A stretch of 64,000 bases of DNA from Escherichia coli (GTDB lineage Bacteria; Pseudomonadota; Gammaproteobacteria; Enterobacterales; Enterobacteriaceae), in the NCBI RefSeq assembly GCF_965641715.1, contig NZ_OZ282453.1; one strand, written 5' to 3'. This document shows, one piece after another, positions 49,023 to 49,765 of this stretch. The translations under genes and the position numbers were made by a program. Every line of letters starts with the position of its first letter. The stretch's first letter is position 1. Under the pieces are notes generated by a model, which was given only the letters and a program-made list of their open reading frames with translations, had not been told where the DNA came from and ran no database searches.

Positions 49023-49765
49023 ACCAATTCCTTTTCAATGAATAATTGGCCTTTAGGAGTGATTCCCTTTGTCTTTAATTCAGTTCTAACTAGTTCTTTA
49101 ATCCAATAGCCTAAGCTCATCATGCAGTTGGATCATAAGACAACGCCCTATAGTGCTCGTGATACTATAGGGCATCTGACCACACTGTTAACTGGAGTAA
49201 CGACTATGGCAGGAATACAGCATAACCAAACTCACCCCAAACTTACATAGCGCTTTCTGGCCGTGAGCATAACAAGGTCCACTCCTCGCTCAAAGCGGAC
49301 TAGAAGGTTAGCTTGTGTCGGACTTTGCGTATTAAATGACTAGTGGTTGAGCCCCATTTCCACAGAAAAAATCAGAGAAACTATACCCAATAGTTGTATT
49401 GAATCACTGACGAGACAGCCTCATATTCATCAGGACTGGTGTACGTCCAATACAGGAGGTTGTGGTGCTGGTTCTCAAATGTGCGCTGGCTATTACGGCT
49501 GTAATGGCGATTTATTGTCTTGCTATTGTTCTTATGGATCGCCTTTCTGACTGATTTCACATTGGCGAGGTAACGGTAGTTAAGTAGAATGGCTGCGGGT
49601 GCTTGAGGCTATCTGCCTCGGGCATGAACACCAACGGCAGATAGAGAAAAGCCCCAGTTAACATTACGCGTCCTGCAAGACGCTTAACATTAATCTGAGG
49701 CCAATTTCATGCTAGACACATGTAGGTTAGCCTCTTACGTGCCGAAAGGCAAGGAGAAGCAGGCT

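Follow-up and report, generated by a model that had tools for sequence, protein, structure and literature searches.

In the window, by which we mean the whole 64,000-nucleotide stretch of Escherichia coli contig NZ_OZ282453.1 (assembly GCF_965641715.1) that was analysed, an interval of about 0.5 kb (49023–49560) separates the anti-phage defence gene PD-T7-1 from the hok gene of a lambdoid prophage. We consider it likely that this interval is a mosaic of three layers, the seam between a mobile defence cassette and a lambdoid prophage backbone. Positions 49023–49276 would be the control region of PD-T7-1, itself a piece of a P4-like satellite's genetic switch. A 24-bp inverted repeat, R, marks the right end of the cassette. 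Beyond it, 49301–49596 would be the backbone of a Qin/mEp460-type prophage, with a gene for a hydrophobic peptide of 29 codons and then the hok promoter. A preliminary description of the same DNA had named a recombination scar, left by the swapping of cargo, as one of several possibilities. The scar is strongly borne out, though its place was off: it is to be found at R (49277–49300), some 110 bp rightward of the palindrome in the interval.

What is the gene to the left? It had been called an orphan, but it matches the PADLOC profile PDLC04073 over its full length (residues 8–447 of 449; table 1) and by that match is PD-T7-1, a single-gene system recovered by functional selection in E. coli, for whose family founder protection has been demonstrated (PMC9519451). 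The GC content is 33–40% over the cargo versus 45–54% in the flanks, a composition that looks foreign. A second locus, L009, matches the window at 99.5% across 47336–49300 and not at all outside it, on either side. Because this match covers exactly that segment, we place PD-T7-1 in a cassette of 1,965 bp, gene and flanks together, bounded by two repeats, L and R; positions 49023–49300 of the interval belong to it. The left part of the interval and the gene recur in the P2-like Yersinia phage vB_YpM_46 (YpM46, locus L067; 98.6% identity), where the cassette lies between the tail-fibre assembly gene and FI, the classical Z/fun position, and in the Morganella phage IME1369_01 (93.9% identity). 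The same cassette was found in at least six flank contexts (lambdoid, P2-like, Morganella and three more), with homology ending at the repeats. With its low GC content, a predicted promoter and a terminator-like hairpin directly 3' of the gene, it looks like an autonomous unit. The approximately 260 bp between that hairpin and L (47360–47619) are conserved in every copy of the cassette.

If the interval is composite, do its parts travel separately? We compared it by megablast with 5,426 complete E. coli genomes. Query positions 1–278 (window 49023–49300) travel with the PD-T7-1 gene, and positions from about 252 to 578 (window 49274–49600) travel with hok in approximately 1,800 records; the two parts occur together in only 11. 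The same split was found in the phage collection. The window itself is near-identical to phage mEp460_ev081. At the position in question, between the DUF977 gene (46837–47238) and hok, its relatives carry quite different genes, those of Evi, Tritos and HannyBb being each distinct, and BL21 has a deletion. In BL21-type strains (L007, 3704–4159) this deletion fuses the DUF977 gene to window position ~49442, taking out the hotspot along with the beginning of the small open reading frame's (ORF's) 5' region. An alignment to the Qin prophage of K-12 had been suggested for locating the breakpoints; K-12, however, lacks the whole interval and is homologous to the window only from 49752 on, a point within the hok leader at which relBE abuts hokD. 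In K-12 Qin (L188) two L-like remnants, at ~6005 and ~6996 in locus coordinates, flank flxA–ydfV, adjoining relBE–hokD.

Table 1. Features of the PD-T7-1 cassette and of the adjoining prophage backbone (window coordinates).
Feature	Position	Strand	Basis or remark
L inverted repeat GTCCGCTTTGTGCCAAGAGCGGAC, left end of cassette	47336..47359	+	Lambdoid backbone homology stops, P2-like/Morganella homology begins
Terminator-like hairpin 3' of PD-T7-1, GATTAATACG + 6 nt + CGTATTAATC, T-rich tail	47620..47645	-	Perfect 10-bp inverted repeat; function inferred
PD-T7-1 anti-phage defence gene, 449 residues (the 'orphan' of the preliminary description)	47673..49022	-	PADLOC PDLC04073, E = 4.2e-157
34-codon ORF, truncated remnant of a ribbon-helix-helix (RHH; HicB/CopG-type) regulator	49019..49123	-	75% identical to residues 41–64 of the 64-residue RHH protein of L065
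Candidate -10 box TATGAT (TATAAT in L065)	49132..49137	-	Conserved in all PD-T7-1 loci; promoter role inferred
Perfect palindrome GCCCTATAGT + 9 nt + ACTATAGGGC	49145..49173		Operator-like element
Sigma-70-like promoter TTAACA-16 nt-TATAGT (10/12), facing PD-T7-1	49164..49191	-	-10 box in right arm of palindrome; uncertain
GGAG Shine-Dalgarno sequence and 14-codon stub MAGIQHNQTHPKLT (then stop) of divergent gene	49194..49250	+	95 residues in P4-like satellites
R inverted repeat GTCCACTCCTCGCTCAAAGCGGAC, right end of cassette, swap junction	49277..49300	+	Common to window, YpM46, Morganella phage, Evi and Tritos
Backbone segment upstream of hok, 5' region of small ORF	49301..49464	+	14-bp deletion between 49336 and 49337
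AGGAGG Shine-Dalgarno sequence (49454–49459) and 29-codon ORF MLVLKCALAITAVMAIYCLAIVLMDRLSD, GTG 49465 to stop 49554	49454..49554	+	Substitution pattern
hok promoter-like site TTGGCG-17 nt-TAGAAT	49562..49590	+	Promoter scan

Each of the bounding repeats is a hairpin-forming palindrome; L folds as DNA at -8.4 kcal/mol (z = -4.9). Because the reverse complement of R is identical to L at 20 of 24 positions, L and R are inverted repeats of each other. The inverted arms are alike (GTCCGCT/AGCGGAC, 7–8 bp identical) and the central cores differ, the 8-bp core being TGTGCCAA in L and TGAGCGAG in the reverse complement of R. Phage P2 (L189) has the same arms and cores, L at 15335–15358 and R at 17432–17455, flanking fun(Z). 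The scan found neither repeat at the tin/old hotspot of P2 and YpM46, and none in P4. A review (PMC8987985) states, in a sentence that credits Nilsson et al. 2004, that inverted repeats on either side of fun allow site-specific recombination.

How widely are these repeats spread? An exact scan of IMG/VR for the core and right arm of R returned 47 loci. To the left of R these have 27 unrelated flank classes and to its right six to seven unrelated backbone types, and one cargo is paired with two different backbones. The sequences right of R include tail-fibre, tail-fibre-assembly and virion genes and P4-type integrases. Besides PD-T7-1, L and R bound at least 20 other cargos, mostly defence genes, and of 10 cargo proteins put to the test seven match families of known or candidate defence function (PDC-S15, RT-Toprim retron-type, PDC-S06 twice, NsnA/PD-T4-2-like and PD-T7-3 twice). 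The usual layout is L, 1.2–5.8 kb of cargo, then R, with the cargo genes in either orientation; tandem cassettes are joined by R-(11–18 nt)-L. In a 16-mer scan of one genome per species most matches were due to chance and 22 had the full hairpin; among those hits with organism names shown, most are Enterobacterales (Pantoea, Kosakonia, Phytobacter, Pseudescherichia, Lonsdalea, E. coli). No empty site was found among 3,421 genomes that hold a flank. The nearest to one, a single genome with both flanks within 620 bp, still has L and a partial R.

Where within a repeat does one sequence give way to the other? The comparison covered 52 distinct L elements, each with its flanks. In the 94 pairs that share a backbone but differ in cargo, positions 1–15 are nearly invariant, while positions 16–24 differ in up to 72% of pairs. 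In the seven pairs that share a cargo but differ in backbone, it is positions 1–9 that differ and positions 15–24 that do not. At R, the PD-T7-1 cassettes give the mirror image: the left arm and core follow the cargo, and the right arm varies with the backbone. The switch point in L is thus the central core GTGCCA, positions 10–15. A switch point so confined is the pattern expected of site-specific exchange, unlike homologous crossovers, which are spread out. It is the pattern expected if cassettes were swapped at L and R by site-specific recombination among lambdoid, P2-like and other temperate elements of Enterobacterales. That the hotspot is essentially never empty would fit an inability of L and R to recombine with each other. 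We therefore raise, tentatively and as something we would not assume, the possibility that L and R are the two heterospecific sites of a natural system of recombinase-mediated cassette exchange, L recombining only with L and R only with R. A host or trans-acting recombinase would then swap defence cassettes among lambdoid, P2-like and satellite elements without deleting them. If true, this would explain both the near-absence of empty sites and the R-spacer-L joints of the tandem arrays.

Other features of the repeats may be recorded here. Tandem cassettes joined through R-(11–18 nt)-L are seen in L009 (6163–11575) and likewise in L010, L024, L027, L186 and L152. Following PD-T7-1 in L009 the R element is a hybrid, its right arm replaced by the end of an inverted L (…CTCGCTCATAAGGGACAACCA), and recombination between inverted elements is suggested by this hybrid. 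In the P2-like backbones (YpM46, P2) the inverted repeat reaches 9 bp past the hairpins, AATCTGACA standing immediately before L and TGTCAGATT immediately after R. An upstream box, GGCACAG, complementary to CTGTGCC of the L core, is present in the left flanks of both P2-like and lambdoid elements. The L core also contains GTGCCAA (47345–47351), apparently the 7-bp core of the sfx sites of the R64 shufflon, acted on by the Rci recombinase; this likeness may be due to chance. Elsewhere in the window, in a region between antiterminator and lysis genes, two paralogous lipoprotein-like genes (54384–54812 and 54963–55358) have between them a degenerate hairpin resembling L, GTCAGCTCTGAGCCAGTGGCGGAC (54893–54916), which may be a second, decayed cassette boundary.

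If R is the seam, what is the DNA between R and PD-T7-1? Its most conspicuous element is a perfect inverted repeat, 122 bp upstream of the PD-T7-1 start, with 10-bp arms at 49145–49154 and 49164–49173. The preliminary description misquoted it, printing 11-mer arms and a spacer of 11 nt; the spacer is 9 nt. The 11-mer 'cactatagggc' quoted for it is absent from the sequence because a T precedes the right arm. This is the sole perfect inverted repeat of at least 10 bp within 49023–49560, the remaining ones there being 70–89% matches. Perfect 10-bp inverted repeats with spacers of 3–20 nt are no rarity, occurring at seven loci in the window versus about two per simulated 64 kb; the chance that one should land in the 538-bp interval is ~0.02. 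Whether relatives keep it has a mixed answer. In the aligned sequences of L059 and of the Morganella phage, the latter 94% identical overall, the arms are intact and two to three of the nine loop bases differ. L065 keeps 8/10 of the repeat, and in L063 it has decayed. Six loci with an intact RHH gene are identical in the intergenic region and add no diversity to the palindrome. The palindrome overlaps predicted promoters, and 7 bp beyond it toward PD-T7-1 stands the box TATGAT (49137..49132), which is kept in every relative.

The regulator that might have acted there is in ruins. Between these promoters and PD-T7-1 lies a 34-codon ORF whose stop overlaps the PD-T7-1 start (ATGA) and which has been lengthened by a TAA-to-CAA change relative to L063 and L065. 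It has no Pfam match. Upstream of PD-T7-1 the window holds no intact RHH DNA-binding domain, the DNA-binding N-terminal 40 residues (the β-strand and first helix) being gone. A more complete arrangement is found in L065, which stands for hundreds of Klebsiella and Enterobacter contigs and whose PD-T7-1 protein is 86% identical. There the order is P4-type integrase, AlpA, PD-T7-1, a 64-residue RHH protein, the palindrome region, and a divergent operon encoding proteins of 95 and 59 residues, DUF4222 and a primase. It is these last four that mark L065-type loci as P4-like satellites. The RHH protein of L065 scores above the cut-offs of Pfam HicB and RHH_1. In L065, as in L191–L195, the domain is intact, and intact RHH genes were found on 153 Klebsiella and Enterobacter contigs. 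The divergent ORF of L065 (1863–2150) begins MAGIQHTQTRPKFT; its counterpart in the window is cut after 14 codons (49206–49250), 26 bp before R. At 2233–2272, just upstream of the intact RHH start codon, L065 has a perfect 12-bp inverted repeat, GTGTGTACCTAT-16 nt-ATAGGTACACAC, which is deleted in the window type.

We suggest, then, that in a satellite ancestor the RHH gene and PD-T7-1 formed one operon, divergent from that of the 95-residue protein, DUF4222 and primase, with the palindrome between them. Because the RHH regulator is truncated and the divergent gene reduced to 14 codons, the palindrome is probably a relic: on comparison with the satellites, a vestigial operator carried over from their divergent switch. 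PD-T7-1 would probably be expressed constitutively from the prophage, with no repressor. The earlier suggestion that this region is the promoter and operator of the gene is accordingly plausible as to position, the palindrome overlapping a 10/12 promoter and standing near a conserved -10 box, but the cognate RHH protein is truncated.

The DNA to the right of R has a different character. Positions 49301–49596 are prophage backbone, 85–100% identical in the ~1,800 E. coli records and unannotated in RefSeq. The whole interval had been described as non-coding, which is only partly right: besides the RHH remnant (49123..49019) it holds a 29-codon ORF with a coding pattern. In an alignment of 23 alleles its GGAGG is invariant and its GTG at 49465 conserved, while the GTG at 49462 is not. 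The variants comprise 12 synonymous and eight non-synonymous changes (expected synonymous fraction 0.31, P = 0.007), and the amino-acid changes are conservative. Other reading frames are non-significant, except for an antisense frame coupled to it by codon position (P = 0.048). The product, 29 residues with one predicted hydrophobic helix, carries the label 'hypothetical' or 'membrane protein' in the deposited annotation of hundreds of contigs and belongs to no Pfam, NCBIfam or PHROG family. Because the ORF is kept in two alleles in which hok has been replaced by other DNA, it is a separate unit; by its substitution pattern it looks like a real gene for a small membrane peptide. No antisense RNA antitoxin, such as a type I toxin–antitoxin pair would have, emerged for it: no minus-strand promoter was called in 49300–49560 and there was no Rfam match, the tools being weak ones for this purpose. 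Two other candidates were rejected. A minus-strand ORF of 59 residues has stops in three alleles and its start replaced by ATT in others. The Cys-rich ORF of 67 residues (49347–49550), which had been noticed together with tiny ORFs, does exist, but it is poorly conserved and gathers non-conservative changes.

Most lambdoid backbones (L004, L005, L009 and others) have a Chi site, GCTGGTGG within AGAAGTGCTGGTGG, approximately 45 bp past R on its right side, oriented so as to stimulate RecBCD-dependent recombination leftward into the cassette. The 14-bp deletion at 49336/49337 has taken it from the window and three relatives. At the right edge, hok was correctly placed: hok/sok directly adjoins the interval, with Rfam sok (RF01794) at 49597–49771 scoring 115.3 bits against a gathering score of 59. 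The promoter-like site upstream (table 1) fits a predicted start of the hok mRNA leader near 49597. The mok/hok ORF (49709–49921) has a weak match to an NCBIfam Hok subfamily, 47.5 bits, below the 73-bit cut-off. A sub-threshold match to Rfam isrK at 49930–50011 (25.7 bits, E = 0.014), over the 3' terminator region of hok, is probably a terminator-like similarity only.

Several points weigh against the account given so far. The pairs of L elements are not phylogenetically independent, and their detection needed the core to be present. Covariation between the arms is weak (among 39 L elements position 4 is CG in 24, TG in five, CA in five and TA in one), and the corresponding R set was contaminated by chance 16-mer matches of the genome scan; because the signal is weak we claim no RNA structure for the 24-bp hairpins, whose aligned arms look conserved in sequence and not through compensatory change. 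The lambdoid, P2-like and integrase-adjacent contexts have no recombinase in common, so that homologous or illegitimate recombination must be allowed for. We take L and R to be the repeats of Nilsson et al. 2004 from the review sentence and our scan of P2. In the control region both promoter assignments are consensus matches and as such predictions; L063 has lost the TATAGT -10 box, and in the window no good -35 sequence accompanies the conserved TATGAT box. The second inverted repeat of L065 is also a candidate and could be the real RHH operator. The conservation of the palindrome is judged from few independent sequences, being perfect in the close copies only. As to the 29-codon ORF, the test of its coding pattern uses 20 variant sites, and no promoter is predicted for it.

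Might the 24-bp hairpins serve some other end? They could be transcriptional insulators or mRNA-stabilising stem-loops, the cassettes moving by homologous recombination in flanking phage genes or by lambda Red-type recombination on short repeats. The lack of a common recombinase would suit such a scheme, as would the Chi site near R, the readiness with which the hairpins fold as single strands and the presence of cargo in either orientation. Yet the same cassette sits in backbones with no shared flanking homology, and the switch point is confined to a core of ~6 bp instead of being spread across 24 bp. L and R are both without a T-tract, and the scan called a terminator at neither, its one terminator-like hit (49300..49277) having a weak tail only; and the arms are conserved in sequence, not just in pairing. 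We judge this alternative unlikely, and retain exchange at the repeat cores as the working explanation.

Could the palindrome in turn be something other than a relic? It might be a live regulatory site, either an operator for a regulator acting in trans (the RHH repressor of a co-resident P4-like satellite, or a host factor) or a pair of TATAGT -10 boxes of competing promoters, in which case PD-T7-1 would be controlled and not constitutive. Arms that stay unchanged while the loop changes, the overlap with the 10/12 promoter, a TATAGT in each arm and the abundance of intact RHH genes in Klebsiella and Enterobacter would all agree with this. Yet L063, with four to five changes in the arms, keeps an intact gene; the promoter scan gave the plus-strand hexamer no -35 box; only a stub is left of the divergent gene that it would serve; and the cassette encodes no regulator. 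On balance we find a live site possible but doubtful. As an RNA hairpin within a transcript (a terminator, attenuator or processing site) the palindrome has a stable stem in its favour, -9 kcal/mol as single-stranded DNA (z ~ -4.5). But its flanks are CATCTGA on one strand and GTTGTCT on the other, with no T-run, and the terminator scan did not list it. It has no compensatory changes, its arms being either identical or decayed. Because the best promoter has its predicted start inside the loop, the full hairpin would stay untranscribed. The Rfam scan (E ≤ 1, 47000–52000) gave no match in 49023–49596, its only hits being sok, outside the interval, and sub-threshold isrK, rsmX and snoRNA. The structured RNA once proposed for the interval therefore lacks support, and an RNA role for the palindrome is highly improbable. 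We think it barely credible, finally, that the palindrome mimics a T7 RNA polymerase promoter and lets an anti-T7 cassette sense or exploit that enzyme. The 9-mer ACTATAGGG, which corresponds to the T7 consensus from -7 to +2, is found at just two places in the window, one in each arm (0.23 expected), upstream of a gene selected for T7 defence. However, just nine of 23 positions of the consensus are matched, the specificity region from -17 to -8 not among them; L065 has ACTCTAGGG and L063 has lost one copy. PD-T7-1, moreover, protects better against T-even phages than against T7 (PMC9519451). With only a 9-mer matching, and that not conserved in L065 or L063, we rejected the mimic and return to the vestigial operator.

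Why should such a junction matter? The rapid turnover of anti-phage genes at the hotspots of prophages and satellites is an open question. Rousset et al. 2022 described the mechanism by which defence genes are exchanged there as unknown and speculated on cos ends. The window supplies one concrete joint, and exchange confined to the cores of short repeats makes the mechanism directly testable. L and R also provide a sequence tag with which new defence cargo may be mined. The bounding repeats as such were already known, from the P2 fun locus. What appears to be new is that they also stand at a lambdoid hotspot and elsewhere, that the crossover is confined to their core, and that the control region of PD-T7-1 comes from a satellite. 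PD-T7-1 is catalogued as a one-gene system and would descend from an RHH-regulated operon of a P4-like satellite. Beside hok, about a third of complete E. coli genomes would carry an unannotated gene for a membrane peptide of 29 codons.

How does the arrangement compare with systems already described? The hok/sok system (hokW/sokW of Sp5; PMC8621323) adjoins the interval on its right and lies outside it; the 29-codon ORF upstream is not of the Hok family, having no Pfam or NCBIfam match. The control region resembles the operons of RHH (HicB/CopG/Arc) type II toxin–antitoxin systems and repressors, in that loci of the L065 type have an RHH gene ahead of PD-T7-1 in the same operon, and a palindrome at its promoter, but the RHH remnant of the window is without the β-strand and first helix. 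Phage morons are autonomous units of promoter, gene and terminator inserted between phage genes (Juhala et al. 2000). Like them, the cassette is low in GC and brings a predicted promoter of its own as well as a terminator-like hairpin; its transcription runs counter to the early-right operon, and it is predicted to be expressed from the prophage. Unlike them it ends in precise 24-bp inverted repeats, whereas conserved bounding repeats form no part of the definition of a moron. The pdif modules of Acinetobacter plasmids and integron cassettes are likewise discrete cargo modules bounded by short palindromic sites. They too occur in many backbones and in arrays, with the crossover inside the site; but L and R are neither XerC/D-like (11-6-11) nor attC-like, no integron integrase is nearby, and each L–R cassette has two sites with different cores, not one.

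The closest relative is the Z/fun locus of P2. Vassallo et al. described fun as the second defence hotspot of P2, without mention of repeats (PMC9519451). Our literature search, which did not take in Nilsson 2004 and Odegrip 2006, found no description of the repeats beyond P2 fun and no printed repeat sequence. In P2 this pair of 24-bp elements encloses fun(Z), and in YpM46 it encloses the PD-T7-1 cassette; in the window as in P2, variable, low-GC cargo of the defence type lies between conserved repeats. The window differs in its setting, a lambdoid prophage with the DUF977 gene on one side of the repeats and hok on the other. Elsewhere the repeats adjoin tail-fibre genes or P4-type integrases, and Pantoea, Kosakonia and other genera have them in tandem arrays.

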